DNA of 64,000 nucleotides from an uncultured bacterium (GCA_963705915.1 OY970126.1:515552-579551), one strand, 5' to 3'; shown: positions 2,494 to 57,768, numbered from the stretch's first letter. Notes: a model not told the origin generated them from the sequence alone. Program-made: numbers and translations.

Positions 2494-4407
2494 TCAGTCA
2501 ATCACCCCTCGCACGCGCCGGATGCCGGCCGCAACGGCTTCTTCTTTCGCCAGTGTAAAGCGCCCAATCTCGCCGGTGTGCGAAACGTGCGGACCGCCGC
2601 AGAATTCTATGGAGAATGCATGCGTAAATTTTGGATTGTCCTGGGTTGCGTCCTTGGGGCCAATCGAATACACCGAAACGCGATCAGGATATTTCTGGCC
2701 AAACTCGTGTTCGGCGCCAAGACCCTCCGCTTCTTCGCGCGCCATCTCGGTCCGGATCACCGGCAGGTCTTCGCCAATCTTTTTATTCACAATATCCTCA
2801 ACTTCTTTCTTTTGCTCATCGGTCATCTTTACATCGTACGAAAAATCGAGGCGCAACCGCTCGCTCGTGATATTACTGCCGCGCTGTTTCACCTGCGGGC
2901 CGAGCACCATCTGAAGCGCTTTTAATAAAAGATGATGAGCCGTATGTAATCGCACCGTTTTTTCTGAAGTATCAGCCAAACCACCTTTGAATGTGCCTGC
3001 GGAGGATGTGCGGGAGAGTTCGCTGTGCTTCTCCATCTCACGACGAAATGCTTCCCTATCAATTTTTATACCCTTTCCCTCGGCAATCTCTTCAGTAAGT
3101 TCCCACGGGAATCCATAGGACTGGAGTAAATTGAACGCATCAAGGCCGGTAATCTTGCCGGATTTCATAATCTTCGCGAGCTCTTTGAGCCCCGTGCCAA
3201 TCACTTCATCAAATTTTGCGAGTTCGTCCTCCATCTCTCTGTATAGAGTTGCGGACTCTGAGCTCAAATTTTCATATACCCCAGCATACGAACCTGCCAC
3301 GACGGGAACCAAACTCAAAATTTGCTTCTGATAATCTGATTGCCCGAAAAGGTTCTGCCCGATGAGCGCCGCCCTGCGGAGCAATCGGCGCAAGACATAC
3401 CCGCGCCCCTTGTTGGACGGACGAACACCGTCCGCAATGAGAAATACCGATGCGCGTACGTGATCGAGGATAATCCTCGTCCTTTTTTCTTCTTTCAGCT
3501 GTAGCGTTTCTGCCATCTGCGCAAAAACATCAATATGGAAAACATCCGGATCCCCGTTCGCCGCTGCCGTGATGCGCTCGAGCCCTCCGCCGAAATCAAC
3601 GTTGCGCTGGGCAAGTTTTTCGAATGTGCCGTCGCTCTTCTTTTTATATTCCATAAAAACGGAATTGCCGATTTCAAGGAATCGACCGCAGTCGCAGTTC
3701 GGATGGCAATGCTCACCGAATTTTTTGTCGTGCCGCGGCGAACCCTTTGCATCCATCTCGCCAAAATCGAAGAATACTTCTGAGTCGGGTCCTCCCGGCT
3801 CGCCCGCCGGCATTTTTGAAGGCACGCCCGCGCGACTCCACCAATTCTTTTTTACGTCGTACGAAAAAATCCTGCCGCCTTGCATGCCTTTTTTGCTGCC
3901 GTTTTCTTCTGAATCAAGCTCAACATACTTTGGGTCTCCTCCGTCAACGTCTTGTCCTGCAAAAAGTTTTTTCCAGATTTCCACCGATTCGTGGTCGGCG
4001 GGGATGCCGGTTTCTTTGTCGCCGGCGAAAACCGTCACGTACAATCGCGCAGGATCGAGGCCTGCGCCGTTTTTCTTGTCGGTCAAAAATGCAAAAAACC
4101 ATGGAAGTTGTTCTTGCTTCCAATAATCATTGAGCGACCAATTGCCGAGCATCTCGAAGAATGTGGTGTGGCGATTGTCGCCCACCTCGTCGATATCCTC
4201 GGCGCGAAAGCTTTTTTGCGAGTTTACGAGACGCTTGCCTTCGGGATGACGCTCGCCCAAAAGATAGGTGATGAGCGGCTGCATGCCGCTGCCCGTGAAA
4301 AGGGTCGTCGGATCGTTCTCGGGAACAAGCGACGCCGATGGGACGATAACGTGCCCCCGTTCGACGAAAAATTTTAAGAATCGACTGCGGATTTCTTGGG
4401 AATCCAT
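2494..4407 (-). CDS. alaS: Alanine--tRNA ligase, short form (637 aa) lacking the C-terminal C-Ala/DHHA1 region
   Basis: N-terminus RFLKFFVERGHVIVPSASLVPENDPTTLFTGSGMQP, then HTTFFEMLGNWS. The editing-domain HxxxH motif (TAHHLLLKA) and a C-terminal CGGPHV motif are present. These are class II AlaRS hallmarks. Confidence 0.9.
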   Translation of the reverse strand: MDSQEIRSRFLKFFVERGHVIVPSASLVPENDPTTLFTGSGMQPLITYLLGERHPEGKRLVNSQKSFRAEDIDEVGDNRHTTFFEMLGNWSLNDYWKQEQLPWFFAFLTDKKNGAGLDPARLYVTVFAGDKETGIPADHESVEIWKKLFAGQDVDGGDPKYVELDSEENGSKKGMQGGRIFSYDVKKNWWSRAGVPSKMPAGEPGGPDSEVFFDFGEMDAKGSPRHDKKFGEHCHPNCDCGRFLEIGNSVFMEYKKKSDGTFEKLAQRNVDFGGGLERITAAANGDPDVFHIDVFAQMAETLQLKEEKRTRIILDHVRASVFLIADGVRPSNKGRGYVLRRLLRRAALIGQNLFGQSDYQKQILSLVPVVAGSYAGVYENLSSESATLYREMEDELAKFDEVIGTGLKELAKIMKSGKITGLDAFNLLQSYGFPWELTEEIAEGKGIKIDREAFRREMEKHSELSRTSSAGTFKGGLADTSEKTVRLHTAHHLLLKALQMVLGPQVKQRGSNITSERLRLDFSYDVKMTDEQKKEVEDIVNKKIGEDLPVIRTEMAREEAEGLGAEHEFGQKYPDRVSVYSIGPKDATQDNPKFTHAFSIEFCGGPHVSHTGEIGRFTLAKEEAVAAGIRRVRGVID

Positions 4408-4483
4408 ACCCGTACATACTACTGGACGGCGCTGGATTTTTCCAGCAGATTAAGGCATAATACAGGCAGAAGGAGGTGCCGCT

Positions 4484-4801
4484 ATGGGCATCAAAAAACC
4501 ACCCAGCTGCACAGCAATCCGCGAAAGATTTTGGAGTCGCGTCGTCGTGGAAGCGCCGGATCTCACGCTCAAAGAGATCACGGAGATCGGCGACCACATG
4601 GTGGAATGCCAATCTTGCCATTTAGCTATCGGCACCGCCGAAAGTATCCTGGACCAGCTATCGCACTCCCAGCGATTTGCAGGCGACGCCAAAGATCCGT
4701 GCAGGGATTACATCTTCGATCTTGGAATGAAAAAATTTCTGGAACTGGTTGACTACGGCTTTTGTGAAGACACACAAAACCAGACACGATATGACCAGTA
4801 A
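4484..4801 (+). CDS. Hypothetical small protein with HxxxCxxCH zinc-finger-like motif (105 aa)
   Basis: ORF in the alaS/miaA divergent intergenic region. Contains HMVECQSCH, reminiscent of zf-HC2 anti-sigma domains. Weak evidence. Confidence 0.35.
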   Translation: MGIKKPPSCTAIRERFWSRVVVEAPDLTLKEITEIGDHMVECQSCHLAIGTAESILDQLSHSQRFAGDAKDPCRDYIFDLGMKKFLELVDYGFCEDTQNQTRYDQ

Positions 4802-12117: not shown

Positions 12118-15100
12118 CTATTTCTCAGATGCCCCACCGCTCGGTGCCGCCGCAGCAGCCACTTCCTCCTCTTCTATATCTTCTTCGTGAAGGATGTGAA
12201 CGCCTTCAATATCCTGTTTACCGGCCGGGATCAGGCGGCCGATGATGACGTTTTCCTTCAAGCCGCGGAGTTTGTCCACCTTGGCTTCGATGGCTGCTTT
12301 CACGAGGACACGAGATGTGTCTTGGAATGAAGCCGCGGAAAGGAATGATTCAGCAGAAAGTGCAATGCGGGTGATGCCAAGCAATACCTCTTCTGATTTG
12401 GCGAGTTTCGCGCCCTGTTTCTTGAGCTCCTTATTCACTTCGAGGAACTTGGACTTCTCAACAATCTCGCCCATCACGAAGTCAGGTGCATCGCCGCCTT
12501 CCGTAATCTTCACGCGCGAGAACATCTGCTTCACGATCATTTCGATATGCTTGTTGTTGATCGAAGCGCCTTCGGAGAGATAGATTTTCTGGACTTCATT
12601 CACAATGTAGCGAGCGACTTCACGCATGCCCTTGTGTTCATACAACTCGTGGATGTCGAGGTTGCCTTCGGTGAGGAGGTCGCCCTTCTGAACCTTGTCG
12701 CCCTGATGGGCAAAGAACACCGTGCCGCGCGGGACGCTCACTTCCTGAGCTTTGGCCTTCTTGTTTTCCGCGATAAAGCGGATCGTCTTCAAATTGCCCT
12801 TTTCTTCGATCTTATCCACCGTCCCGTCGAATGGTGCGAGGATAGCGCGGCCCTTCGGTGAACGGGTTTCGAAAATTTCTTCGACCCGCGGAAGGCCGTG
12901 CGTGATGTCGGCACCGGCGACACCGCCCGAGTGGAAGGTGCGCATGGTGAGTTGAGTGCCCGGTTCGCCGATGGACTGTGCGGCGAGAACGCCGACGGCC
13001 GTGCCAAAGGCAACCGGTTTGCTCACGCCGAGATCAAAGCCATAACAACGTGCGCAAATGCCATAAAGCGTTTTGCACGTGATGGGTGACCGCACGATGA
13101 CTTCATCAATCTTGGTTGCTTCGATCGCTTCGGCCATCTCCTTGGTGATGGTTTCATTCGCACGGACAAGAATCTTGTTGCCGACTTTGATGTCGTGAAG
13201 CGCGGTGCGGGAATAGAGTTTCGATGAAAAACTCTGATTGAATTCTTTGCCGTCGCTGCGGAGGATGTCGATGCCTTCCTTGGTGCGGCAATCTTCCTCG
13301 CGGATCGTGAGATCCTGCGACACGTCAACCAAACGGCGCGTGAGATAACCAGCCTGCGCGGTCTTCAAAGCGGTGTCGGTCGTGCCTTTGCGGGCGCCGT
13401 GCGTCGAGATGAAGTATTCGAGAACCGACAAACCCTCCTTTAGGGACGACTTCACGGGAAGTTCGATCGTCTCGCCTTTCGGGTTTTGCACGAGTCCTTT
13501 CATACCCATCATCTGGATCGGCTGCGACCATGAACCGCGGGAACCGGAATCAACGATCTGGTAAATAGAATTGTCGATCGGCAAAATGCCGGAGACAATC
13601 TTCGCGAGCTCATTCTTGGTGCGCTCCCAAACGCTGATGACGCGGCTGCGGCGTTCGGCTGCGGTGAGTAAGCCTTCCGCAAATTGTTCGTGGATGAGAT
13701 TCACTTCGGCGTCGGCCTTCTTCATCACTTCCACTTTTTCCGGCGGGATCACGAGATCTGCCATCGCCCAGGTGATACCGGAGGTCGTCGCCATGTCGAA
13801 ACCGAGGAACTTCACGCGGTCGATCACGTCGCGCGTGGCATCCATGCCGTGGTCATGGAAAATCTTACTGAGCAACTGGTTCAATTTCTTCTTTGTTATC
13901 ACGTCGTTCACGAACGGGATCGTATCGCCGAGGGCGCGATTGAAAACCAAGCGGCCGGCGGTCGTCTCTATACCCTTCACGATGATCGGTGTATGAAGCG
14001 TGATGGCGCCGAAATGATGCGCGAGGAGCGCCTCATCTAAGCCGGTCATATGCTTTACCGGACCCTGTCCTTCAATTCTGCGGGTGAGATAGTAGCAACC
14101 AAGGACAACGTCATTCCACGGACCCGGGATGAGATCACCGGTCGCAGGCTTGAGCAAGTTTTTGCCGGCGGACATGATTTCTTCCGCTTCTTTCTGTGCT
14201 GGTTCGGAGAGCGGCAAGTGAACGGCCATTTGGTCGCCGTCGAAGTCTGCGTTAAACGCTGCGCACACGAGCGGCGGCAATTTGATCGCCAAGCCTTCAA
14301 CGAGCTGCGGACGGAACGCCTGCACCGACAAGCGGTGCAACGTTGGAGCGCGGTTCAAAAGCACGCGCTTCCCCTGCATCACTTCTTCGAGAACGGCGAG
14401 CACTTCGGGCGTGTGTTCTTCCATGTAACGCGAGGCGCTGCGAATGTTATGGGCCAAGCCGCGCTTGATGATCTCGGAAACGACGAATGGGCGGAAAAGT
14501 TCCAAGGCCATGCGCTTCGGAATACCCATCTCGTCGAGCTTCAATTTTGGACCGACGACGATAACCGAACGGCCAGAGTAGTCCACACGCTTACCGAGCA
14601 AGTTCTGACGGAAGCGACCCTGTTTGCCTTTCAACATGTCGGCGAGCGAGCGAAGCGGACGGCGCTGAGCGCTAAGCTGCTGGGTGCCGAAACGGGCCGA
14701 GTTATCAATCAAGGCATCAACAGCTTCCTGCAGCATGCGCTTTTCGTTACGGACGATCACGTCCGGCGCTTTGATCTCGAGCAATTTCTTGAGGCGATTG
14801 TTGCGGTTGATCACGCGGCGATACAAATCGTTCAAGTCGGACGTGGCATAACGGCCGCCGTCGAGGGCCACCATCGGACGGAGATCCGGAGGCAGCACGG
14901 GGAGCGAGGTCATGATCATCCATTCCGGCCGAGAGCCATTGCGGATCATCGCTTTGAACATCTTGAGGCGACGAAGCAGCTTGCTCTGGGCGAGCGGATC
15001 TTTGGCGCCTTCGAGTTCGGTCTCAATCTTCTGGATTTCTTTCTTGAGATCCATCTTTTCGAGAATCGAACGGACGGCCTCTGCACCGGATGAAGCCTTG

Positions 15101-18100
15101 AAAATGTTGCCGAATTTGCGCGAGAGCGTGAAGTATTCGTTCTCTGAAAGAATCTGGCCGACATGCAAGTCTTCCAAATAATCCTTGGTGGTGTCGGCGG
15201 CTTCGAGAATCTCGCCTTTCACGGCTTTGTCTTTATTGCCGACGGTCTTTAATTTGCCCTTGAGTTCGCGATCCAACTCGGCGAGGGCTTCCTTGCGGTT
15301 GTCTTCTTTTATTTCCGTGATGATGTATGCCGAATAATAAATGACGCGCTCCAATTTCTGTGCCGACACATCGAGCGAGAGCGAAAGGCGCGACGGGATG
15401 CTCTTCAAAAACCAGATGTGGCTCGCGGGTGTCGCGAGGGCGATGTGGCCGATGCGTTCGCGGCGGACCGCTGCACGCGTCACTTCAACACCGCACTTGT
15501 CGCAGACAACGCCCTTATAGCGGATCCTGCGATATTTGCCGCAGTAGCATTCATAATCTTTCGTTGGGCCGAAAATGCGCTCGGAGAATAAGCCATCTTT
15601 TTCAGGCCGCTGCGTGCGGTAGTTGATCGTCTCGGGCTTCGTGACCTCGCCATGCGACCAGCGCGCAATGTCTTCCGGCGAGGCAACGGTGATACGCAAC
15701 GCCGAGAAGCTGTCTTTGCGATCGGTTTCTGATTCATAAAGCGGTTGGATGTTGAATCCGAGCGACTTCAATTCGTTCACCAACACATTGAACGAGGCCG
15801 GAACGTTCGGCTCTTTGATCTGTTCGCCGCGGATGATCGATTCGTATGCCGCAGCACGACCAATCACGTCATCGGATTTGATCGTGAGCATTTCCTGAAG
15901 CGTGTGTCGTGCGCCGTAGCCTTCGAGCGCCCAGACTTCCATCTCACCGAAGCGTTGGCCGCCGAACTGCGCTTTACCGCCAAGCGGCTGCTGAGTGATG
16001 AGCGAGTATGGACCGATCGAACGCATGTGCGCCTTGTCTTCCACAAGGTGGTTCAGCTTGAGCATATAGATCTGACCAACGGTCACGCGATTATCGAACG
16101 CAACGCCGGTGCGGCCGTCGAAGAGCTTCACTTTGCCGTCTTTCGGAAGGCCAGCTTTTTCGAGTTCCGTTTCGATTTCGGCTTGCGTGGCAGAATCGAG
16201 TCCCGGCGTGATGGCACGATAGCCGAGCTTCGAAGCAGCCCAACCAAGATGGGTTTCCAAAATTTGTCCGAGGTTCATACGGGAGATGACGCCGAGCGGA
16301 TTCAAAACGATGTCAACCGGCGTGCCGTCTTCGAGATACGGCATATCTTCCACGGCGCGCACTTGCGAGATGACCCCTTTGTTGCCGTGCCGTCCGGCGA
16401 GTTTGTCGCCCGCCTGCACTTTGCGGAGTTCTGCGATTTCAACCTGAATACGCCGGATGATGCCGGGTTCGAGTTTGTCGCCGCGTTCGCGATCGAACAC
16501 TTTTACGTTCACCACACGACCGATTTTACCGTGCGGAAGCGTGAGCGACGTATCTTTCACGTCGCGCGCTTTTTCACCGAAGATTGCGCGCAAAAGCCGC
16601 TCTTCTGAGGTGAGTTCCGATTCACCTTTCGGAGAAATTTTACCGACAAGAATGTCCCCCGCTTTCACTTCGGCGCCGATGCGGACGATGCCTTCTTCAT
16701 CAAGGTTCTTCAATTTATCTTCTGAAACGTTAGGGATGTCGTAGGTCGTCACTTCCGGACCAAGCTTCGTATCACGCACGTCGCAGGAATATTCATCAAT
16801 ATGGATAGAGGTGAAACGATCGTCGCGGACGACGCGCTCGGAAATGATGATGGCGTCCTCAAAGTTTGCACCTTCCCATGAGACGAAGCTCACCAGAAGA
16901 TTTTGGCCTAATGCGAGCACGCCGTTTTCAATGGAAGGTCCATCGGCGAGGATTTGCCCTTTCTTCACTTTGTCGCCGGACGTGACGAGCGGACGCTGGG
17001 AAATACAGGTGAACTGGTTTGAACGCTTGAATTTCTCAAGCGTGTAATTCTTGGTTGCTTTTGGATATCTCACTTTGAGATGGGCTCCATCAGCTTCGAG
17101 AATTTCGCCATTTTCTTCGGCGACGATCACGTAGCCGGAGTCGAGCGCCACTTTTTCCTCTTGACCCGTTGAAACATAAGGCGCATCAGGCTTTACGGAC
17201 ACGACTGCCTGGCGTTGCATGTTGGAACCCATGAGCGCCCGGTTCGCATCGTCGTGCTGCAAGAACGGAATGAGCGACGTGGCAACGGAAACGAATTCAT
17301 GCGGCGCGACGTCGATATAATCGACTTCGTCCGGCGTCACCGTTCCCGGCTCACCTTTAATACGCGCTTCGAGCAACGGGCCAACGAGTTTGTCGTTTTC
17401 ATCCCGCTTGCTGCCGGCATGGGTAATCTTGTATTTTTCTTCTTCCGAAGCATCCATCCAAACAACGTCTTTCGTAATGACACTGTTCGTCACCTTCATG
17501 TACGGCGCCTCAAGGAAACCGAAATCGTTGATGCGGGTGTAGCTTGCGAGGTAGTTGATGAGACCGATATTCGAACCTTCCGGCGTCTGAATTGGACAGA
17601 TGCGACCATAGTGCGAGCGGTGCACGTCGCGCACTTCGAAACTCGCGCGCTCACGGGTGAGACCGCCCGGACCGAGCGCGGAAATGCGGCGCTTATGCTC
17701 AAGCTCCGCGAGCGGGTTCACCTGGTCCATAAATTGCGAGAGCTGTGAGCTTGCGAAAAATTCTTTGATGACGGCTGCGATCGGGCGGAAATTCACGAGC
17801 TGTGCAGGTTGAAGATTGTCTTTGTCTTCGGTCGACATGCGGTCTTGAATGATACGACGCAAGCGAGCGAGACCGATACGCAAACGGCCCTGGAGTAATT
17901 CGCCGACCGCCTTTAAGCGGCGATTGCCCAGGTGGTCGATGTCGTCCGGTTCAGCATCCGGGTCGTTATTTAAAGCGATGATTTCACGGACAATCCCAAC
18001 GATATCATCGGCATCAAGGAGCTTATAGGTCTTTTTTTGATTGAAGTCCAAACGCTGATTCATCTTGTAGCGGCCCACCTCCGAAAGGTCGTAGCGGTCG

Positions 18101-18876
18101 GGGCGCTCAAACATCGCACTGATGAGATTCTTCGCTGTTTCTGCGTTCGCCGGATCGCCCGGGCGCAAACGGCGATAGATTTCAACATATGATTCCGCAG
18201 CGTCCTTTGCGACGTCTTTCTTGAGCGTTGCATCGATGTATTTAATGAGTCCCCCGTCAACATCCTTGAATGCCGCGTGGATTTTTTCGGTCGTGAGGCC
18301 AAAGATACGGAGCAAATCGGTGACGGGCACCTTGCGGTGACGGTCGATCTTCACGCCGATTTCACCGTTGATGTCAGTTTCAAATTCGAGCCATGCGCCG
18401 CGGTTTGGAATAATTTTTGCGCCGAAAAGCTGACGGCCGCGATACGGGGTCGCCGTAAAATACACGCCCGCCGAACGTACAAGCTGGGAAACGACAACGC
18501 GCTCAACGCCGTTCACGATGAATGTGCCGCGTCCCGTCATGATCGGGAAATCACCGAAATAGACTTCTTGCTTTTGCTCCTTCCCCGTCCGCTTATTCAC
18601 CAAGCGGAGCGTGCAGCGCAACGGCGCTTCGTACGTCGCTTCTTTGTAGCGTGCCGTCGCTTCGTCATATTTCGGCTCATCAAATCGATAGTCCGAAAAA
18701 TATAATTCAAACTCCTTCCCGGTATGATCCCGGATCGGCGAGATTTCTTCGAGGAGCTCGTTTAATCCTTTTTTAAGAAACCATTCGTAGGATTTGAGTT
18801 GAGCTTCGTTCAAATTGAACGGAGCGATGAGCGACTTTGATTTACCGAACTGCTTCGTTGAGGTAAATTTTGCCAT
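12118..18876 (-). CDS. rpoBC: DNA-directed RNA polymerase beta-beta' fusion protein (rpoB-rpoC in one 2252-aa reading frame)
   Basis: The N-terminal ~1049 aa carries beta signatures, for example [18 protein letters not shown] and ...[12 protein letters not shown] at its C-terminus. A short linker TDRKDS joins it in frame to the beta' N-terminus [77 protein letters not shown]. Beta' motifs NADFDGD and the trigger-loop region follow. The junction is at about 15730. Confidence 0.9.
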
Positions 18877-22155: not shown

Positions 22156-22183
22156 TATAGCAACAAAAAAACGGCCCTTTGAT

Positions 22184-22298
22184 GTCGGCACATCCTACGT
22201 TCCCCATCGTCGAAACAATGAGTATCATCGGATTGGAGCGCTTTCACTTCTCTGTTCGGAATGGGAAGAGGTGGGACACGCCCGAATAAAGCACCGAC
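22184..22298 (-). rRNA. rrf: 5S ribosomal RNA
   Basis: Reverse complement reads ...GTGTCCCACCTCTTCCCATTCCGAACAGAGAAGTGAAAGCGC...GATGGGGAACGTAGG..., matching the 5S loop B/C consensus. Terminal helix is gtcggtgc/gtgccgac. Confidence 0.8.
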
Positions 22299-22333
22299 AT
22301 CAAAAGGTCGTTTTTTGTTGTAGAGAAAACAGC

Positions 22334-22440
22334 ATTTGTGTTTGTGGTTTGGAGGGTGTCACGGAGGCACGAAGGTGCCGAGTGTCAGCGGTCGCGCCAG
22401 CAGGCGCGAACCGCGACCCTACAAATCACAAACACAAATG
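22334..22440. repeat. Hairpin-flanked structured element, copy C, in the 23S-5S internal transcribed spacer (14-bp closing IR catttgtgtttgtg/cacaaacacaaatg)
   Basis: Core cggag-[ggcac gaag gtgcc]-gag-tgtc-[gcggt cgcgcc agca ggcgcg a accgc]. Base pairs covary relative to copy B: cgcgcg/cgcgcg in B versus cgcgcc/ggcgcg here, and ggccgc/gcggcc versus ggcac/gtgcc. Confidence 0.65.
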
Positions 22441-22569
22441 CGTAAGTCAGCATTGGGATGGTTGGCGGGATTATTAGTATCACTTGGCTTAACGCATTGC
22501 TGCGCTTACACCTATGACCTATCAACGTCGTAGTCTTCGACGAAATCACGCACACCTAATCTTGGGGTG

Positions 22570-22602
<33 letters not shown>

Positions 22603-22691
22603 CTTCCATACATAGCTACTCGGCAATTCACCTGGTGGCAAAGCCGATAGACCAGAGGTATGTTCAGTCCAGTCCTCTCGTCGATTACTCA

Positions 22692-23463
22692 CATATTACT
22701 ATGTGCTCAGACTATATCTTCATCCTTCCGCAAAGCGGTGTCGGACGTCGGCATATTATAGCGATTCAAAAACCGCTATCCGGTCATTCGGTATAGAACC
22801 GAAGACACAAGTCGTTACGGGGTCAAACCAAAAATCGTTTTTAATTCTTCTTTGGATCTTTTCTTTCTTGTAGCATAATTTTCGGATTGAACAATCAATA
22901 TATTATCTATTAATTGTTCTTTGACTGGCGACAAGTCGCAGCCAGCAGACAAAAGTAGTCGAGCTGAACTTATAATAGCTTGTGCCTGTTTCTTTTTAAA
23001 TTTAAGAAATGGCAACAAACTTTCTAAAATGTTCATCACCCGTTTGTGTCCGTTGATTCGCAGCTCCGTCATCCCATCATTTCTCCGATAAATGTATCCT
23101 ATGCCCAAGACTGTCCTGATCCAATGGAGCGGTTGGTCATGCCGGGAATCCTGATAAAAACAGATGGTCAGCATGACCCTTCGTGTTTTTAATCGAGATT
23201 CTGAACGCCGCTTGAGTTGTATCATCAAGCTACCATCTCCGTCCAAGAATCCAGCGATATACGCTAGATCGATTTGAGATTGACTTCCCACGGTATTGCC
23301 CTGTTCTTGTACCATATCTCAATGGTAAGGAATGAGGACCGTAATTCAAGCTGCCTTTAATAAATTTTTAATAAAAATATTAAGGACGCCGAAGTAAGAA
23401 TAGGGTTTCACCGTTATTAGCCGAGTTGGCAATCTGGATTACTCCAGAAAGTAGCAATTTCTT
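22692..23463 (-). mobile_element. Intron (presumed group I) in 23S rRNA at the sarcin-ricin loop region, carrying a LAGLIDADG homing endonuclease ORF
   Basis: Exon sequences GGTCTTAGT | ACGAGAGGACTGG rejoin to the universally conserved AGUACGAGAGGACC. The 772-nt insert ends in G and begins after U. About 270 nt of non-ORF sequence remains for a ribozyme core. Confidence 0.6.
22815..23315 (-). CDS. LAGLIDADG-family homing endonuclease (intron-encoded)
   Basis: LAYIAGFLDGDGSLMIQLK motif. 166 aa, single-motif type. Lies entirely within the 23S insertion. Confidence 0.85.
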   Translation of the reverse strand: MVQEQGNTVGSQSQIDLAYIAGFLDGDGSLMIQLKRRSESRLKTRRVMLTICFYQDSRHDQPLHWIRTVLGIGYIYRRNDGMTELRINGHKRVMNILESLLPFLKFKKKQAQAIISSARLLLSAGCDLSPVKEQLIDNILIVQSENYATRKKRSKEELKTIFGLTP

Positions 23464-23503
23464 ACTAAGACCAACTCCCCTCAAGTGTTAAACGCCTGCA
23501 GCA

Positions 23504-23544
<41 letters not shown>

Positions 23545-24428
23545 ACGTGCCACTTTAATTGGCGAACAGCCAAACGCTTGGGAGCTTCTCCACCCCCGCG
23601 CTGTGGCGAGCCGACATCGAGGTGCCGAGCATTGTCGTCGCTAGGGACGCTCGGACAATACTAGCCTGTTATCCCCGGAGTAGCTTTTATCCGGTGTCTC
23701 CGGCCTTTCTATCAAGAATTTAATGAATCGTAAGAAACAATAAATATAGCCGTCGGGTCACTAACTTCTGCTTTCGCACCTGCTCGACTTGTAGGTCTCG
23801 CAGTCAAGCCAGCTTTTGCGTTTGCACGTCCTGCCCGATTTCCATCCGGGCTAAGCTGACCTTAATAAACTCCTCCGTTACTCTTTTGGAGGAAAACGCC
23901 CCATTTAAACTGCCTACCAAGCACTGTCTCAGTTGGGTTTCCTCTAGGGTCCCCAACCGGTTAGACGTTAAAGTTCTAAAAATGGCTGTTTCATTGTCGG
24001 ATCCACACAACCCGAGAGCTGTGCTTCAAATCCTCACCACTACGCTACGTAGTAGAACTCTAAAATCAATACCAAGCTGCAGTAAAGCTTCCGGGGTCTT
24101 TTCGTCCCGCTGCAGGTATCCCGCGTCTTCACGGGAATCGCATTTTCACCGAGCTTGCCTCTGAGACAGTTCTCCGGTCGTTACGCCTTTCGTGCGCTTC
24201 GGAACTTACCCGAAAAGGAATTGCGCTACCTTAGAACGATTATAGTTATCGCTGACATTGACGAGGGCTTGAGTCAGTGAGCCTCCGTATTGCTACGGCA
24301 CCCCCAACCTTGACCTTCTCGCATCGGTCAGGCGTCACCCCCTATACATCCTCTTGCGAGTTAGCAGGGAGCTGTGTTTTTGGTAAACAGTCGCCAGAGA
24401 GACTTTTGTTGCAGCCCAACACCACTTT

Positions 24429-24737
24429 GATTTCAAGATTAAAGAAAGCTGTTTTTGATCCTTTTATAAAGCTCTTGCTTAGCTCTACCATGACTTTTTA
24501 ATCGTTGTTCTCTGCGAAGAGCGTCCTCAAAACTTCGATACGCTTCAATGTAAACAAATTTCCATTCGCCTACACTTCGTTTAGTAGCAGTTTGAAGACC
24601 ACGATTATGCTCAGATAATCTACGTCGAAGATTTTTTGTATGTCCGATGTAGAACTCTTTTGTCACAGTATTTTGGATGAAGTAAACAGCAAACATTTGC
24701 TCATTTTAATCCTATGCGGATTAAAAATATCTTAAAA
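24429..24737 (-). mobile_element. Compact 309-nt insertion in a 23S variable helix carrying a GIY-YIG ORF (IVS-like or degenerate intron)
   Basis: Flanked by an about 15-bp complementary pair, gcccagcaccactttg and caaagtggtgttgggc. The non-ORF part is only about 50 nt, which is too short for a group I core. Confidence 0.5.
24439..24696 (-). CDS. GIY-YIG nuclease-domain protein (85 aa)
   Basis: VYFIQNTVTKEFYIGHTKNLRRRLSEHN matches the GIY-YIG core (GIY...YIG, R, E, N). Confidence 0.7.
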   Translation of the reverse strand: MFAVYFIQNTVTKEFYIGHTKNLRRRLSEHNRGLQTATKRSVGEWKFVYIEAYRSFEDALRREQRLKSHGRAKQELYKRIKNSFL

Positions 24738-25987
24738 GCAAAGTGGTGCTGGGCAGGCCTTATCGCTAACTTACGGCCGCTTTTTTGCCTAGTTCCTTAG
24801 AGGCAAATCACTCGTTCCCCTTGGGCTACTCGCCCTATCCACCAGTGTCGGTTTACGGTACGGTTCCCATGTTTCATAACAAACACGCTTTTCTCGAAGG
24901 GCTCTTCACGATCATTAGCCAGGTAAATTCCTGACCTTCCGCCTCCGGCCGCTTGAACTTGCCGGTAGCGATATCAAACCAATAAGACACGATCGCTTAT
25001 TTCCCTTGCACGTGCAGGATAAAAACATAGGAGGGCTGGAATATTAACCAGCATTCCATCGACTGCCCCTTTCGGGATTGCCTTAGGACCGCCTAACCCG
25101 TGGTTGATTGCCAGTGCCACGGAAACCTTAGATTTTCGGGGTTCCAATTTCTCATTGGGATTGTGGTTACTCGTTCCGACATTTTCTCTTCCGGACGCTC
25201 CAGTCGCCCTCGCGGGTCGACCTTCACTGCAACCGGAATGCTCTCCTACCAGACGTGTCTCCCGAAGGAAACACGAATTCGTATCTTCGGTGCCGTGCTT
25301 GAGCCCCGATACATTTTCGGCGCCACCACCCGTCGAATAGTGAGTTGTTACACACTCTTTAAAGGATGGCTACCTCTAAGCCAACCTCCTATCTGTCTAT
25401 GGGTGATAACTACCTTTAACACTGAGCACGGACTTGGGGACCTTAGATGACGATCTGGGCTCTTCCCCTCGCGACCATGGAGCTTAGCCCCCACAGTCTG
25501 ACTAGTGAGTTTTTGACTCTCGGTATTCGGAGTTTGATTGATCTGTCGGCCTTTCGGCCTTTACAGATCATCCAGTGCTCTACCCCCAAGAGGAACACTC
25601 ACCGCTAGTCCTAAAACTATTTCGGAGAGAACCAGCTATTACGTAATTCGATTAGCTTTTCACTCCTTACCTCAGCTCATCCGAAGATTTTGAACAATCA
25701 ACCGGTTCGGGCCTCCCTCTCGATTTCTCGAGAGTTCACCCTGGCCAAGGTAAGCTCATCACGCTTCGGGTCTAGACTGTGCCGCCTATAGTTCGCCCTA
25801 TTAAGACTCGCTTTCGCTGCGCCTTCGCGCTATTCGCGCTTAGACAAGCGACACAATATAAGTCGTCGGATCATTCTTCAATAGGCACATTGTCGTTCTC
25901 GTCCGCGGATTGCTCCGCAGCCGTTCGAACTTCAATTCCTTGTAGACAAATGGTTTCAGGTTCTATTTCAACGGCCTCACCGGCCTG

Positions 25988-26024
<37 letters not shown>

Positions 26025-26998
26025 ATCTAGAAAAGTATTTAGCCTTACCAGATAGTACTGGCAAATTCCTTCGAAACTGTTTTACTTCGAAGTACTCAAG
26101 TAGGTAAACTAAGGAGACCAAAAGTTTTCGTCTACGGGGCTATCACCCGCTATGGCACTGGCTTTCCAGCCAGCTTCGACTAACTCATGATTTTTTGACT
26201 CCTCCACCAACCTCATAAATAACACAAGGTACATTGCTATACCCTATGTTATTTAGGAGGAGAGCGTTCATCACTTATAACTCCAAGGTTTGACCTTGCG
26301 ATCAGAACCTTAGTCTGGGCTCTTCCCTTTTCTCTCGCCGATACTCAGGGAATAAACTGTTTGTTCTTTGTTCCTCCGGCTACTGAAATGTTTTACTTCG
26401 CCGGGTACGCTCTTGGATTGCTCCAAGCCATTGAGGTTTACTCAACGAGGTTCCCCCATTCGGAAATTCCCGGATCACAGGTTGCTACGCACCTCCCCGA
26501 GACATATCGCTGCTACGCCGCGTCCTTCATCGCCTTTTCTAGTCTAGGCATCCACCATTCGCCCTTAATGCCAACCATCCCAATGCTGACTTAAATTTAT
26601 TTGCTCTGCCTGCCAAGAGAAATTGCGCGCGTGAAAAGTGCAAAACATCAAGCGCGTGCCTGGTCTCTCTATAATATAGAGCGGCTCCAGACATAAGATG
26701 GCGCAGAGCTACATATAATGACTCCGACTCTACAATTCGGAGTTCGTTCATGGACTATCGAACGAATTATGGAAAATTGCGTTCGACAGGATACCTAAGA
26801 AAAAAATCAGCCGCACATCGCGGCCGCTCTGCCATCATAAAATGGCGGGTTCAGCCGCTTGCTTTGAGAAGATTTTTATTCGTAAGCATCTGTCTTAGGG
26901 ATAAGTATACTCAGCTTGAAAAGGGTGTCAAGCATGATGGAAACAGATCAAAAGTTTCAAAAATAAAACCGCCTGGCGACATTGCTTGTAAAGCTTCG

Positions 26999-48520: not shown

Positions 48521-48546
48521 AAAAACCCCGCTTTGCGGGGGTTTTT
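48521..48546. terminator. Intrinsic terminator (aaaaaccccgc-tttg-gcgggggttttt), symmetric
   Basis: Perfect 6-bp GC hairpin flanked by A5 and T5, downstream of pilA (minus strand). Confidence 0.6.
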
Positions 48547-48576: not shown

Positions 48577-49089
48577 CTAAAGAGTTACGCAATACTCAGG
48601 AGCAGCACAGGTCGAGATAGTATCTCCAGAAGGATTGCTCGGAAGCGTTGGCGGATTATAGCCGTCAAAAACAGTACCGCTTCCATTTTCCATGGTTGCC
48701 TGTATGACGTACGTTGTTGCTGGAGCAGTCGTGTTCTCTGCAAACAAATAAACATATTTGTTGGTGTTTATTGGATCGCTTGGAATGGAACTCACACCAA
48801 TACCAGCCGTCCCAACAAGGTCGGCTCCCATTGTATTATAGTACGTCCCCCCCGTTTCCGTCTGGCCGCCAATAATGGTAGCCGCTCCGCAATTCGCCGT
48901 ACCCGGATAGAAACCGCATTTGTTGTAGTAAAGTTCGAGACCATTCTGGATTTCATGGATGTCCGAGACACGTCGAGCGTCTCTTCCAGCCTGTTGCGTC
49001 GGGCCAAGACCCACCAAGACAACAGACGCCAAGATGGCGATGATAGCAACGACGATCAGGATTTCGATAAGGGTGAAACCTTTTTTCAT
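48577..49089 (-). CDS. pilA: Type IV major pilin
   Basis: MKKG|FTLIEILIVVAIIAILASVV is a canonical short-leader type IVa pilin. 170 aa with C-terminal Cys residues. Confidence 0.8.
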   Translation of the reverse strand: MKKGFTLIEILIVVAIIAILASVVLVGLGPTQQAGRDARRVSDIHEIQNGLELYYNKCGFYPGTANCGAATIIGGQTETGGTYYNTMGADLVGTAGIGVSSIPSDPINTNKYVYLFAENTTAPATTYVIQATMENGSGTVFDGYNPPTLPSNPSGDTISTCAAPEYCVTL

Positions 49090-49191
49090 GAAAGTTTAAT
49101 GAATTTTCCCTTCATCATTCGACCTTTCTTATGTATCCAGTATAACAGATGATTTTTCTCGGCCTGTGGAAAGAGGCTGGATAATGGCTCT

Positions 49192-50322
49192 CTATTTTTC
49201 GAACAATCCCACATATTCGTGGAGTTCAAATGAACGATTCCGTGAAAGCCCCGTCTTTTCCTTGAGAATGCCTTTATTTTCAAACTCCTTTACGAGTCGG
49301 GTTGCGGTAACAAAAGCAACATCAAGCTTGTCGGCGATCTGATTGATACTGAGGATTGGCTGGGAGAAAAGCATGATCAGGAGTTGTTGGCCCAATTCCG
49401 CACGTCTGCCCATTTCTATAATCTTTTTCTCGTAACGGCGGCGCAGGGTGATGATTTTTTCAAAAGTCGCCTTCCCTTTTGTGGCAGTTTCGACCACTCC
49501 GGTCAGAAAAAATTTGATCCATTGCTCGATATCGCTCGATGCTCGAACAACCGTAAGGGCGTCGTAGTAAGCTCCTTTGTGCCGTTCAAAAAAATCTGAA
49601 AGGTATAACGTCGGCTTTGCAAGAATGCCGGCTTCAACGAGTTGAAGGGTTATAAGCAGACGGCCGGTTCTGCCGTTGCCGTCGAGAAAGGGATGTATAG
49701 TCTCAAATTGGTAGTGGCTCATGGCAGACTTCACGAGTAGCGGGATCTCGAGATCTTTGTTGTGCCAGAATTTTTCGAGATCGGAAAGTAGTTCCGGTAA
49801 TTCAGTTGGATGTGGAGGCACAAAGACTGCGTTTTGGAGGTTTGAACCTCCTATCCAATTCTGGCTTGTCCGAATTTCGCCAGGCGTTTTGTGTTCTCCG
49901 CGTACACTCGTAAGGAGAATCTTATGGGCATTCCTCAGCAACCTCATCGAAAGTGGAACAGCTTCAAGCTCGTTAATGGCATAATTCATGGCTGAGATAT
50001 AATTCTGCACTTCTTTCCAATCATCGCGTCGCTCGGGATTGATATCTTCTTTCGGTTGGAGGGCCTCTTCTATGCGAGTTTTCGTTCCCTCAATGCGGCT
50101 GGAGGTTATCGCTTCTTTGGCGATGTGCATCCTTATGAAATAATTCACGTCGGGAACAAGCGTGGAATAGGCATTCAATTCGCCAAGAAGACGCATTGCC
50201 TCTGCAAGTAATACGTTGACCTTCTGGTCTTCCCACATAAAAGGCTTATTGATAAATGAGGGACTAAAACTTTTATATTGATCCTGCCGCACGTAGGTGC
50301 CGGATGTAAATGTTGTTTTCAT
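49192..50322 (-). CDS. fic: Fic-family protein (class II, with N-terminal inhibitory motif), putative AMP-transferase
   Basis: Canonical Fic motif [13 protein letters not shown]-terminal TSSRIEG fits the [S/T]xxxE[G/N] alpha-inh motif. C-terminal wHTH-like region. Confidence 0.85.
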
Positions 50323-50398
50323 AAGTGGAAATAAGGATTTCTTTATTTACACTTTAGCATATAAAGTGGAAATAAGCAAAATCTTGTTTACACTTCCT

Positions 50399-51610
50399 CT
50401 ACGAGAAGCTCGCCGTGAGCCGATAAATTGGAATGAGCACCGAGGCAAAGAGCAGTCCAACCATAATGCCCATGCCGATGATGAGAATCGGCTGGATGAG
50501 CTCAACGAGGTTGCCGGTCACCTGGTCGGCTTCGCGGGTGTAGATGCCGGCAAGCCGGCTGAACATATCTTCTATCTTGCCGGTTGTCTCGCCCACGGCA
50601 ACCATCTGCGAAACGAGCGCCGGGAAAAAATCGGGATATTTTGCGATGCTCGCGGAGAGCAGTTCGCCTTGCCGCACGTCTTGGGCGATCTGGTGGATCA
50701 CATCGCGGTACAGTGAATTATCAACCATGTGGCCGATGATCTCGAGCGCTTGCGCGATCGGGATGCCGCCGTGCACGAGGAGGGCCGCGGCGTTGCCAAA
50801 GCGGGCGATCACAACCGGCATGTAGACTTGCTTTGCAACCGGCAAGCGCATTTTGAGTTCGTCCGCAATCGTCTGCCCTTCCGCGGTCTGGAAATAATCA
50901 AAACCCACGATGCCGAGGACGACAACCGCGATGATGATTGCCGGCCACCATTTTCCGAGGAATGATCCTACTTTGAGGAGAATGTTGGTGTACCACGGGA
51001 GCGCCACGTTGTTCTGCGCGAATACCTGACCGAGCTGGGGATAGACGAACGTGACAATAATGAAGGCAACGACAACAAAGACCACGAGCACGATTGAAGG
51101 GTAGATGAGCGCGGACGCTGCCTTTGATGCGAGGTCGCCTTCTTTTTCCGTGTAATCGGCAAGGAACACGGCGATTTCGTTGAGATTGCCGGTCACTTCT
51201 GAGGCCCGGATCATCTCAACATAATAGTCGGGAAATACTTTCCCCTGCCGCTCCATCGCCTGCGAAAACGAAAGGCCGGCGTCGATGTCTTGCGTGATAT
51301 CGAGGATCGCCCCTTTGAGCTTGGTGTTCGTGGTCTGCTGGGCGAGAATTTTGAGGGCGCTATTCAAGGGAAGACGGGCTTCGAGGAGCGTTGCAAGCTG
51401 GCGGGCAAAAACGATCATATCTTTGCGGCCCACCCGATTGAAGAAATCGGCAACGGAGTCGAGTATACTCGGCGCCTCGGTTGCCGAGAGGCTCATCACA
51501 AACAGGTTGTGGCTGTTCAAAACAACGACGGCGCTGTCGCGGTCGCTTGCTTCCACAAAGCCCACCTGCAATTCCCCGTCGCGTGTTTTGGCTTGATATT
51601 TGAACTTCAT
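50399..51610 (-). CDS. pilC: Type IV pilus assembly platform protein (GspF/PilC family)
   Basis: Two GspF repeats with three TM segments. Sits between pilT and pilA. Confidence 0.9.
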   Translation of the reverse strand: MKFKYQAKTRDGELQVGFVEASDRDSAVVVLNSHNLFVMSLSATEAPSILDSVADFFNRVGRKDMIVFARQLATLLEARLPLNSALKILAQQTTNTKLKGAILDITQDIDAGLSFSQAMERQGKVFPDYYVEMIRASEVTGNLNEIAVFLADYTEKEGDLASKAASALIYPSIVLVVFVVVAFIIVTFVYPQLGQVFAQNNVALPWYTNILLKVGSFLGKWWPAIIIAVVVLGIVGFDYFQTAEGQTIADELKMRLPVAKQVYMPVVIARFGNAAALLVHGGIPIAQALEIIGHMVDNSLYRDVIHQIAQDVRQGELLSASIAKYPDFFPALVSQMVAVGETTGKIEDMFSRLAGIYTREADQVTGNLVELIQPILIIGMGIMVGLLFASVLIPIYRLTASFS

Positions 51611-57069: not shown

Positions 57070-57768
57070 ATGCCGTCTTGCTACTATCATAGCATGAATT
57101 TCGCCCCTTTTATTGAGATTTTATTCCCGCGGCGATGCCTCGCCTGCGGGCAAACTATCGCATCAGCATCCACGGCGTGTTGTGAGACGTGCCGTCGGAA
57201 TATTTTGTTAAACCCGCCGCCTGTGCTGTCTCTTGGCAATGAAAAATCTTTTCCCGTCGCCGCAACGAGATATGAAAATCCCATCATCCAAAAACTCATT
57301 CACCACCTAAAATTCAACGGGATAAAAAGCGCTGCCACGCCGCTCGGCGAAATACTCGCCGAATACGTCCTCGAATCGGACGCATCGTACTTGGATTTCA
57401 TTGCGAGCGCAACGATAATCCCGATCCCCCTCGCAAAGAAACGCGAGCGCCACCGGGGATTCAATCAATCGACGCTTATCGCACAGGCATGGAACCGTTC
57501 CATGCAACGCGGCAACGCGAAGGGCATTGTAATCAAAGATCATATCCTCGCACGCATCCGCAACGTGCCCCCTCAAAGCAAAACTGCAAGCGCCGAAGAG
57601 CGGCGGGAAAATATTCGGGGATGCTTCGGCGTGCGTGAAGCGCCGCCGCAGAACATCGTGCTCCTCGACGATGTGGTCACCACCGGATCAACGTTGCATG
57701 AAGCAGCGGCCACGCTCAACGCTGCGGGCGCAAAAAAGATCCTCGCGCTCGCCGTTGCAAACGCTTAA
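57070..57768 (+). CDS. comF: ComF-family competence protein (phosphoribosyltransferase domain with N-terminal zinc finger)
   Basis: N-terminal CLACGQ...CCETCRRN zinc finger and the C-terminal PRTase motif VLLDDVVTTGSTL. Confidence 0.8.
   Translation: MPSCYYHSMNFAPFIEILFPRRCLACGQTIASASTACCETCRRNILLNPPPVLSLGNEKSFPVAATRYENPIIQKLIHHLKFNGIKSAATPLGEILAEYVLESDASYLDFIASATIIPIPLAKKRERHRGFNQSTLIAQAWNRSMQRGNAKGIVIKDHILARIRNVPPQSKTASAEERRENIRGCFGVREAPPQNIVLLDDVVTTGSTLHEAAATLNAAGAKKILALAVANA

Follow-up and report, generated by a model that had tools for sequence, protein, structure and literature searches.

Results

Gene order at the locus

The window, by which we mean the whole stretch of 64,000 nucleotides analysed here, contains a type IV pilus (T4P) operon whose genes lie on one strand in the order pilM, pilN, pilO, orf100 (a 100-aa ORF), pilB, pilT, pilC, the Fic gene, a pilin gene, pilD and three minor pilin genes. 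The Fic gene (49192..50322, minus strand) is flanked upstream by pilC (50399..51610, minus strand), which encodes the T2SSF platform protein (E 6e-55), and downstream by a gene for a prepilin of 170 aa (48577..49089, minus strand) with the N_methyl motif MKKG/FTLIE, after which a strong intrinsic terminator is found (48526-48540). The gene order read in the window bears out the preliminary description of the locus, which had placed a Fic gene between the pilin and platform genes and on the same strand as these. The prepilin gene is presumably pilA, that of the major pilin, judging from its position, its own promoter and the strong terminator.

As a ComFC-like gene adjoins pilM in divergent orientation, the pilus probably serves a CPR-type bacterium for adhesion or for the uptake of DNA; the names attached to the relatives of PilC and of Fic suggest an ultra-small, Patescibacteria/Paceibacterota-like (CPR) host. 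No terminator was found on either side of the Fic gene, which is therefore probably co-transcribed with pilC and the pilin gene, and such co-transcription would be a consequence of the site at which the gene was inserted.

The Fic protein

The start codon of the gene, an ATG giving a product of 376 aa, is fixed by 32 aligned homologues (73-100% identity), all of which are ~376 aa in length. Two Pfam domains match far above their cut-offs, Fic_N at residues 38-116 (E 4e-24) and Fic (PF02661) at residues 123-228 (E 1e-19), and a winged-helix (wHTH) DNA-binding domain forms the C terminus (approximately residues 305-370; 49213..49410, minus strand), with a predicted recognition helix at about residues 337-349 (AFVTATRLV). 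The inhibitory-helix motif SSRIEG (residues 74-79, with S74, E78 and G79; 50086..50103, minus strand) lies inside Fic_N, on the N-terminal side of the Fic core, and fits the pattern [S/T]xxxE[G/N] exactly; the catalytic motif, of the HxFx[D/E]GNGRxxR type, runs intact from H210 to residue 221 (49660..49695, minus strand). Both motifs are invariant among the 32 homologues, so that careful alignment showed the catalytic motif to be intact rather than degenerate, and the initial assignment of the protein to class II, with its own N-terminal inhibitory motif, stands.

In a phmmer search, the protein aligned with the SoFic crystal structures in the PDB co-linearly and over the full length (residues 41-357 against SoFic 38-346, E 2e-33). 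SSRIEG lies over SSEIEN, placing E78 against SoFic E73, and H210 aligns with the catalytic His of SoFic, such that the catalytic motifs of the two proteins superimpose. The gene stands alone and matches the PADLOC SoFic profile PDLC03963 (E 2e-117, profile positions 5-358 of 361), HMM-based SoFic calls being very common and maybe over-inclusive. Strict orthology to SoFic was rejected: the protein scores 166.7 bits against NCBIfam NF046030 ("protein adenylyltransferase SoFic"), below the equivalog cut-off of 550 bits, and its identity to the Shewanella oneidensis protein is only ~28-33%. By its sequence, then, the protein is a SoFic-type (Fic_N-Fic-wHTH) class II Fic, a relative within the family and not SoFic itself, and owing to the low identity and the score below the NCBIfam cut-off, its target and its defence phenotype are extrapolated.

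The alignment given to AF2 consisted of the 32 sequences at >=73% identity, close homologues only, and the resulting model is poor (mean pLDDT 62) and good for a global fold match only: pLDDT falls below 50 over residues 70-106, where the inhibitory helix lies, and over residues 212-216, and reaches 72-92 over residues 305-367, which form three helices and a beta-wing. The top Foldseek matches of the model were SoFic (TM 0.66-0.69 over 354-359 columns), followed by other Fic-wHTH proteins. That the inhibitory Glu78 obstructs the ATP site at the gamma-phosphate, through a salt bridge with the second Arg of the catalytic motif, is what homology would predict, through the alignment of E78 with SoFic E73 and the structures 3ZCN and 3ZEC.

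The insertion site

For comparison, we used 80 metagenomic loci with PilC relatives (50-83% identical) and the contigs of four PilC homologues from among the closest. The order of the operon was kept throughout the related loci, and in none of the 68 that hold both genes was there a gene between pilC and the pilin gene (gap 29-378 nt, median 101 nt) or a match to Fic anywhere in the pilus locus. The junction was likewise free of a gene in three further close relatives, and in the closest complete relative (PilC 77% identical, on a contig of 914 kb) the gap measures 98 nt. With the pilin gene directly following pilC in ~70 operons, the two closest by PilC (81%) among them, the junction is normally empty, as the preliminary description had supposed; the housekeeping-like conservation at this position that would have argued for a core regulator was not seen, the gene being absent from all orthologous operons examined.

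The two closest relatives show the empty site. In these, TTCTCGTAG with a TAG stop is followed after 1 or 17 nt by the box TTTCCACA, then by an extended -10, GAAAAAGGTCGA and the pilin gene. Lineage-specific elements that are also present in the relatives persist in the window between the Fic and pilin genes, all on the minus strand: the box TTTCCACAGG (49163-49172), the extended -10 of the pilin promoter TGTTATACT (49139-49147) and the box GAAAGGTCGA (49119-49128). The native pilC-pilin intergenic region, orthologous to the spacer of the relatives, is thus kept downstream of the insert (49090..49172, minus strand), and the persistence of these three boxes sets the bounds of the inserted segment at ~49173-50398. 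This segment of ~1,226 bp (49173..50398, minus strand), with a tolerance of up to ~20 nt at its right junction, begins 1 nt past the stop codon of pilC, comprises the predicted operator O1, a promoter, the predicted operator O2, the Fic ORF and a 3' tail of <=19 nt, and leaves the pilin promoter intact downstream. The site tolerates an insertion because the pilin gene retains a promoter of its own.

In composition, the gene has a GC content of 0.46 and a GC3 of 0.50 (0.496) vs. a GC of 0.55 and a GC3 of 0.67-0.71 in pilB, pilT and pilC, and falls at the 1.6th percentile of windows of the same size, which accords with a foreign origin. The insert holds the operators and Fic only, with no recombinase gene, and a search of its ends for terminal inverted repeats and for a duplicated target site gave neither; the sole repeat present at both junctions, TAGAG, is with its 5 nt too short to count as a target duplication. 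The comparison confirms that the Fic gene is a lineage-specific foreign insertion, not a core gene of the pilus operon, and its position within this operon is probably incidental. The other stretch of low GC in the window, at 22-27.5 kb, is the 23S/5S rRNA block rather than a second island.

Other genes have sporadically entered the operon at other junctions in the lineage. MazF/PemK-like toxin genes are found in two relatives, in L090 between orf100 and pilB, in L110 downstream of pilD and ahead of the first minor pilin gene, and two further operons carry a NUDIX and HTH gene (L083) and a gene for an MBL-fold hydrolase (L084); in the last of these, a long hairpin element occupies the same pilC-pilin gap. 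The entry of small toxin-type genes into intergenic gaps of the pilus operon is a recurring pattern in the lineage, and among the ~70 loci, Fic is the only gene inserted at the pilC-pilin junction.

An adjacent small ORF of antitoxin type, for which a search had been proposed, was not found: on both sides of Fic, the sequence is free of AS1-like and of other conserved small ORFs. The 102 nt downstream of the gene, which are orthologous to the native pilC-pilin spacer and hold the native pilin promoter, contain two ORFs only, a uORF of 10 codons and one of 65 aa that is out of frame, starts with TTG and runs across the promoter, and no conserved downstream sequence common to the relatives of Fic was found.

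Promoter and predicted operators

The 76-nt spacer between pilC and Fic consists, on the coding strand, of AGG, a first block of AAGTGTAAAC, AAGATTTTGCTT and ATTTCCACTT, the linker TATATGCTA, a second block of AAGTGTAAAT, AAAGAAATCCTT and ATTTCCACTT, and the ATG. The first block is an imperfect palindrome of ~32 nt, AAGTGTAAAC-N12-ATTTCCACTT, which we predict to be an operator (O1; 50364..50395, minus strand) and which encloses a -35 box, TTGCTT (50374-50379). An extended -10, TGcTAAAGT (50351..50359, minus strand), follows 17 nt downstream of the -35 and forms a conserved block of alignment columns, and a second copy of the palindrome, again ~32 nt in length (predicted operator O2; 50323..50354, minus strand), spans the region from the -10 to the ATG. 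The half-sites of both are ~10 bp long and separated by 8-12 bp, and a search of the 64-kb window with the palindrome pattern returned O1 and O2 only, where 0.01 matches were expected.

About 75 nt upstream of Fic are conserved even where the loci have nothing else in common in their flanks, the conservation beginning at the left arm of O1 and ending at the stop codon. Since the spacer is conserved where the surrounding sequence is not, it travels with the gene, and this alignment evidence shows it to be part of the mobile cassette. Across 20 loci, the arms of the inverted repeats pair in 79.7% of cells, vs. 28-50% with the partner slid; changes have occurred in the arms on both sides in 11 pairs, and the covariation in the real alignment was matched in none of 500 shuffles. 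Changes in the half-sites run parallel in O1 and O2, and more distant branches have other half-sites in the same layout, often around a perfect TTGACA-N17-TATAAT. The family of the half-site tracks the variant of the predicted wHTH recognition helix: GTGAAAA goes with AFVTAT/NR, CTTTAAA with TFPTAAK, AACTTTACAT with THQSASS and TTGAGATAT with TFNTANS. An RNA hairpin as the explanation of O1 is ruled out by the location of O1 upstream of the -10, and for this reason the natural reading of these sequence patterns is that O1 and O2 are DNA operators for a dimeric wHTH protein.

The TTTCCACAGG box of the pilin promoter (TTTCCAC) was considered as a further Fic site and rejected: it is conserved in relatives that have no Fic and is without a partner half-site, and its 7-mer match to the half-site is unremarkable because the fourth base of the half-site is variable.

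Relatives of the Fic gene

When one genome per species was scanned, at least 496 Fic loci were recovered, and the best 80 of these are 58-81% identical to the gene in the window. These 80 come from Patescibacteria, Nitrospirota, Firestonebacteria, Acidobacteriota, Planctomycetota, Bdellovibrionales and Omnitrophota, as well as from Pseudomonas/Stutzerimonas, cyanobacteria, Bacillota and Actinomycetota; taken together, the relatives are 58-85% identical and spread over many phyla, and across many CPR lineages the identity is 73-85%. More distant full-length homologues were found on 540 plasmids, in 14 phage genomes, where they are annotated as MloA, and 11 further times on viral contigs.

The neighbours among the best 80 loci are mixed and include aminoacyl-tRNA synthetases, rpoB, GroEL and LepA. 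The sole recurrent context is a type I restriction-modification (R-M) operon, hsdM-hsdS-Fic-hsdR, seen in ~12 of the 80; methyltransferases, RadC, AbiEii and RhuM are occasional neighbours. Of the closest relatives of all, one, 84% identical, adjoins two tyrosine recombinases and a ResIII helicase, and another, 82% identical, adjoins ychF. The Fic copies in R-M operons abut the preceding gene and are without the O1/O2 module. An association of Fic with T4P genes elsewhere was rejected: among the best 80 loci, pilus genes lie within 10 kb in two (L007 and L035, at 3-7 kb), Fic is never inside a pilus operon, and ~78 of 81 Fic loci have unrelated, non-pilus contexts. On these sequence comparisons, the distribution of the gene is that of a promiscuous, horizontally acquired accessory gene.

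Discussion

We consider it probable that the locus carries a horizontally acquired, self-contained toxin cassette of the SoFic/CccR type, ~1.23 kb in size, whose product serves in an AMPylating, abortive-infection-type defence and whose position in the pilus operon is incidental. The cassette, an operator-promoter-operator module and one ORF, would have been inserted 1 nt after the stop codon of pilC and upstream of the pilin promoter. Going by its homologues, the N-terminal helix would mediate dimerisation of the Fic protein, and the two wHTH domains of the dimer would bind O1 and O2 and repress the cassette's own strong promoter, keeping the protein at a low level. The Fic core would be restrained by the intramolecular helix with Glu78, a residue that, by comparison with E73 of SoFic, may also support deAMPylation. 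On activation, for example by phage infection, Fic would AMPylate an essential host protein, most likely EF-Tu in its switch I, and the translation arrest following from the modified EF-Tu would act as a toxin-like, abortive-infection-type defence. The product is thus, by analogy, most plausibly an autorepressed and intramolecularly inhibited toxin, able to stop translation. Among the functions first suggested for the gene, a toxin-like or abortive-infection module fits best with the PADLOC SoFic match, the structural and sequence homology to SoFic and the published phenotypes of the family.

Much of this reading draws on three characterized proteins. SoFic of S. oneidensis (SO_4266/MloA; PDB 3EQX, 3ZCN and 3ZEC) has the same three-part architecture over its full length, with N-terminal dimerisation/inhibitory helices, a Fic core and a C-terminal wHTH, and its SxxxE[G/N] and HPFxDGNGRxxR motifs both align with those of the window Fic. 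It is likewise a single gene without a partner, which PADLOC and DefenseFinder treat as a one-gene anti-phage system. Dimeric SoFic binds to its own gene in the 100 bp that precede the start codon; its substrate is EF-Tu, and AMPylation requires dimerisation (bioRxiv 10.64898/2026.07.09.737422). The window Fic, too, has an AT-rich region directly before its start codon, the position at which SoFic has been shown to bind its own gene. The two differ in that their identity is ~28-33%, in the CPR-type host of the window gene and in that the operators in the window are predicted by comparative sequence analysis. CccR of Yersinia pseudotuberculosis, which also belongs to class II (inhibitory motif S59ARIEG) and ends in an HTH, is both a toxin and an autorepressor. 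Only as a dimer does it repress the promoter of its own gene, by way of inverted repeats that lie over the -35 and the -10 (PMC9755527). The same arrangement at the promoter boxes is predicted for the window Fic, and autorepression through O1 and O2 would thus follow a design demonstrated experimentally for CccR and suggested for SoFic. The operator of CccR, however, is one pair of 10-bp half-sites 26 bp apart, whereas the window has two separate palindromes, and CccR is a T6SS-secreted effector, whereas the window Fic bears no sign of secretion. The third, EcSofic of E. coli H397, is a homologous Fic-wHTH toxin that protects E. coli against phage T5 and depends on dimerisation for its toxicity (PMC12249575), and members of the family are toxic once repression is lifted; downstream of EcSofic lies the gene of a 47-aa antitoxin, AS1, where the window Fic has the native pilin promoter.

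Two further groups were compared. The copies in hsdM-hsdS-fic-hsdR operons belong to the same subfamily (58-65% identical, full length) but have no O1/O2, whereas the window Fic is solitary and has its own promoter-operator module. The class I FicT/FicA pair VbhT-VbhA and Doc/Phd are likewise Fido-fold toxins acting on essential host proteins, and Doc, like SoFic, targets EF-Tu; in both, inhibition comes from a second protein, an antitoxin or one bearing the inhibitory helix, whereas the helix of the window Fic is intramolecular and there is no partner gene.

The main functional rival is a brake on translation with no part in defence: a selfish, addiction-type or growth-control module in which reversible AMPylation of EF-Tu throttles translation under stress, and which persists because it is autoregulated and cheap. 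SoFic is indeed a bifunctional AMPylase/deAMPylase and constitutively a deAMPylase (bioRxiv 10.64898/2026.07.09.737422), most of the close CPR relatives sit alone between housekeeping genes and outside defence islands, and the 73-85% identity across many CPR lineages is of the kind that such a role would give. In groundwater MAGs, SoFic is reported to be the second most prevalent defence family and not to be concentrated in islands or on mobile elements (PMC12259885). That the gene recurs within type I R-M operons and has methyltransferase neighbours, on the other hand, points to defence, as do the published anti-phage phenotypes, and the patchy distribution and the absence from ~70 sister operons speak against a physiological regulator that the cell needs; we regard a growth-control role as rather unlikely. 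A different scenario concerns the origin of the insert and would leave the functional reading unchanged: Fic and the pilin allele may have arrived together, on a segment of ~1.9 kb brought in by homologous recombination (pilin switching) from a Fic-bearing relative. The GC3 of the pilin gene is low (0.485) and near that of Fic, the difference from pilC (0.225) belongs to the largest 6% when set beside 63 relatives, no other gene of the operon is as divergent as that of the pilin (42-65% identity vs. 50-83% for PilC), and the ComFC-like gene beside the operon makes DNA uptake plausible. The pilins of the relatives, however, also lie below pilC in GC3 (mean difference 0.09), and no donor-like locus with Fic at the junction exists among the ~70, which makes joint arrival improbable in our judgement.

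That the site itself matters is harder still to sustain. The preliminary description had offered a regulator that modifies pilus or competence proteins, and in its full form this would be a dedicated T4P or competence factor that AMPylates PilB, PilT or the pilin, or represses pilus promoters through its wHTH. The likely co-transcription of pilC, Fic and the pilin gene, which share a strand and are not separated by a terminator, the two other CPR loci with T4P genes within 3-7 kb and the resemblance of the native TTTCCAC box to an operator half-site are what such a factor would lead one to expect. Against it stand the absence of Fic from every orthologous operon examined, the varied contexts of the gene elsewhere, its own promoter and operators, with the full palindrome present in the window upstream of Fic only, the conservation of the unpaired TTTCCAC box where relatives have no Fic, and EF-Tu as the substrate known for the family; we give hardly any credence to a dedicated pilus regulator, and this part of the original suggestion falls away. 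Only slightly less doubtful is a functional role of the position without such a dedicated factor, be it that expression of the toxin is coupled to transcription of the pilus, that the dimer bound to O1 and O2 acts as a roadblock insulating expression of the pilin gene from the operon upstream, or that cassettes of this kind are spread by pilus-mediated transformation. If it were true, expression of a defence would be tied to transcription of the pilus, which is both a phage receptor and the organelle of DNA uptake, and promoter-plus-ORF cassettes would spread among CPR bacteria by natural transformation without a recombinase of their own.

Overall, the locus itself is a minor one, another copy of a very abundant single-gene defence/toxin family in a permissive intergenic site. 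The pair of filled and empty sites, nevertheless, delimits what moves with a solitary SoFic gene: a recombinase-less unit of operator-promoter-operator-ORF, ~1.2 kb in length. The preprint on SoFic placed the binding only to a 100-bp fragment (bioRxiv 10.64898/2026.07.09.737422), and the predicted operators, together with the co-varying pairs of recognition helix and half-site, provide testable binding sites for the Fic-wHTH subfamily. In the streamlined genomes of CPR bacteria, even conserved operons accept small toxin-type inserts, Fic in the operon studied here and MazF-like genes in its relatives.

Results

In the 80-100 nt directly preceding them, solitary Fic-wHTH genes across phyla (loci L002-L081 of Fic relatives) carry two palindromic operators around a near-consensus promoter, and in these genes the operator half-sites vary by branch, in step with the sequence of the recognition helix. 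Fic copies residing within hsdM-hsdS-Fic-hsdR operons (L070, L071, L077, L078 and L080) have lost the operator module.

The pilin promoter/leader of the window (49087-49172, minus strand) carries three lineage-conserved boxes, TTTCCACAG, an extended -10 TGnTATAMT and GAAAGGTCGA, which are also present in L157, L162, L177, L178 and other pilC-pilin spacers. In the window, the leader holds a uORF of 10 codons, MMKGKFIKLS*, whose Shine-Dalgarno sequence is good and which ends in an ATGA that overlaps the start of pilin; the pilin ATG there lacks a Shine-Dalgarno sequence of its own. A ComFC-like gene encoding a double zinc ribbon and a phosphoribosyltransferase domain (57070-57768, plus strand) is divergent from pilM, and this arrangement suggests a DNA-uptake role for the pilus operon.

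Elsewhere in the window, the RNA polymerase gene is a fused beta-beta' single ORF of 2,252 aa (12118-18876, minus strand), in which all the RpoB domains are followed by all those of RpoC; in two related CPR loci (L003 and L006), rpoB and rpoC are distinct ORFs. In the rRNA block (22182-26578, minus strand), a LAGLIDADG homing-endonuclease ORF of 166 aa (22815-23315) separates the 3' end of the 23S rRNA from the 5S rRNA (22182-22299), with no 16S rRNA adjoining. The 23S match (23320-26578) spans 3,259 nt against a model of 2,925 nt, which suggests insertions.

Discussion

Sporadic inserts of other kinds separate conserved genes in related T4P operons, at L090 1485-1886 (minus strand), L110 5178-5576 (plus), L083 3897-4826 (plus; a NUDIX hydrolase with an HTH_3 regulator) and L084 1277-1933 (plus; an MBL-fold hydrolase); PemK/MazF-like toxins are the inserts in L090 and L110, at differing junctions. 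In L084, the pilC-pilin gap, the same one that received Fic in the window, is enlarged to 378 nt (about 4393-4776) and contains a terminator-like hairpin and a long inverted repeat of ~115 nt (TTTTCTTTTATTTTCAAGAGG...CCTCTTGAAAATAAAAGAAAA), which may be a MITE-like element occupying that insertion-prone position.

Among Fic relatives whose flanks are long, the closest (L164, 4127-5913 and 7274-10300), 84% identical, directly follows two tandem tyrosine-recombinase genes and precedes a ResIII helicase (1,008 aa), and its contig also encodes AAA_25 and DnaD-like proteins. These surroundings may represent an integrative element that could serve as a vehicle for the Fic cassette.
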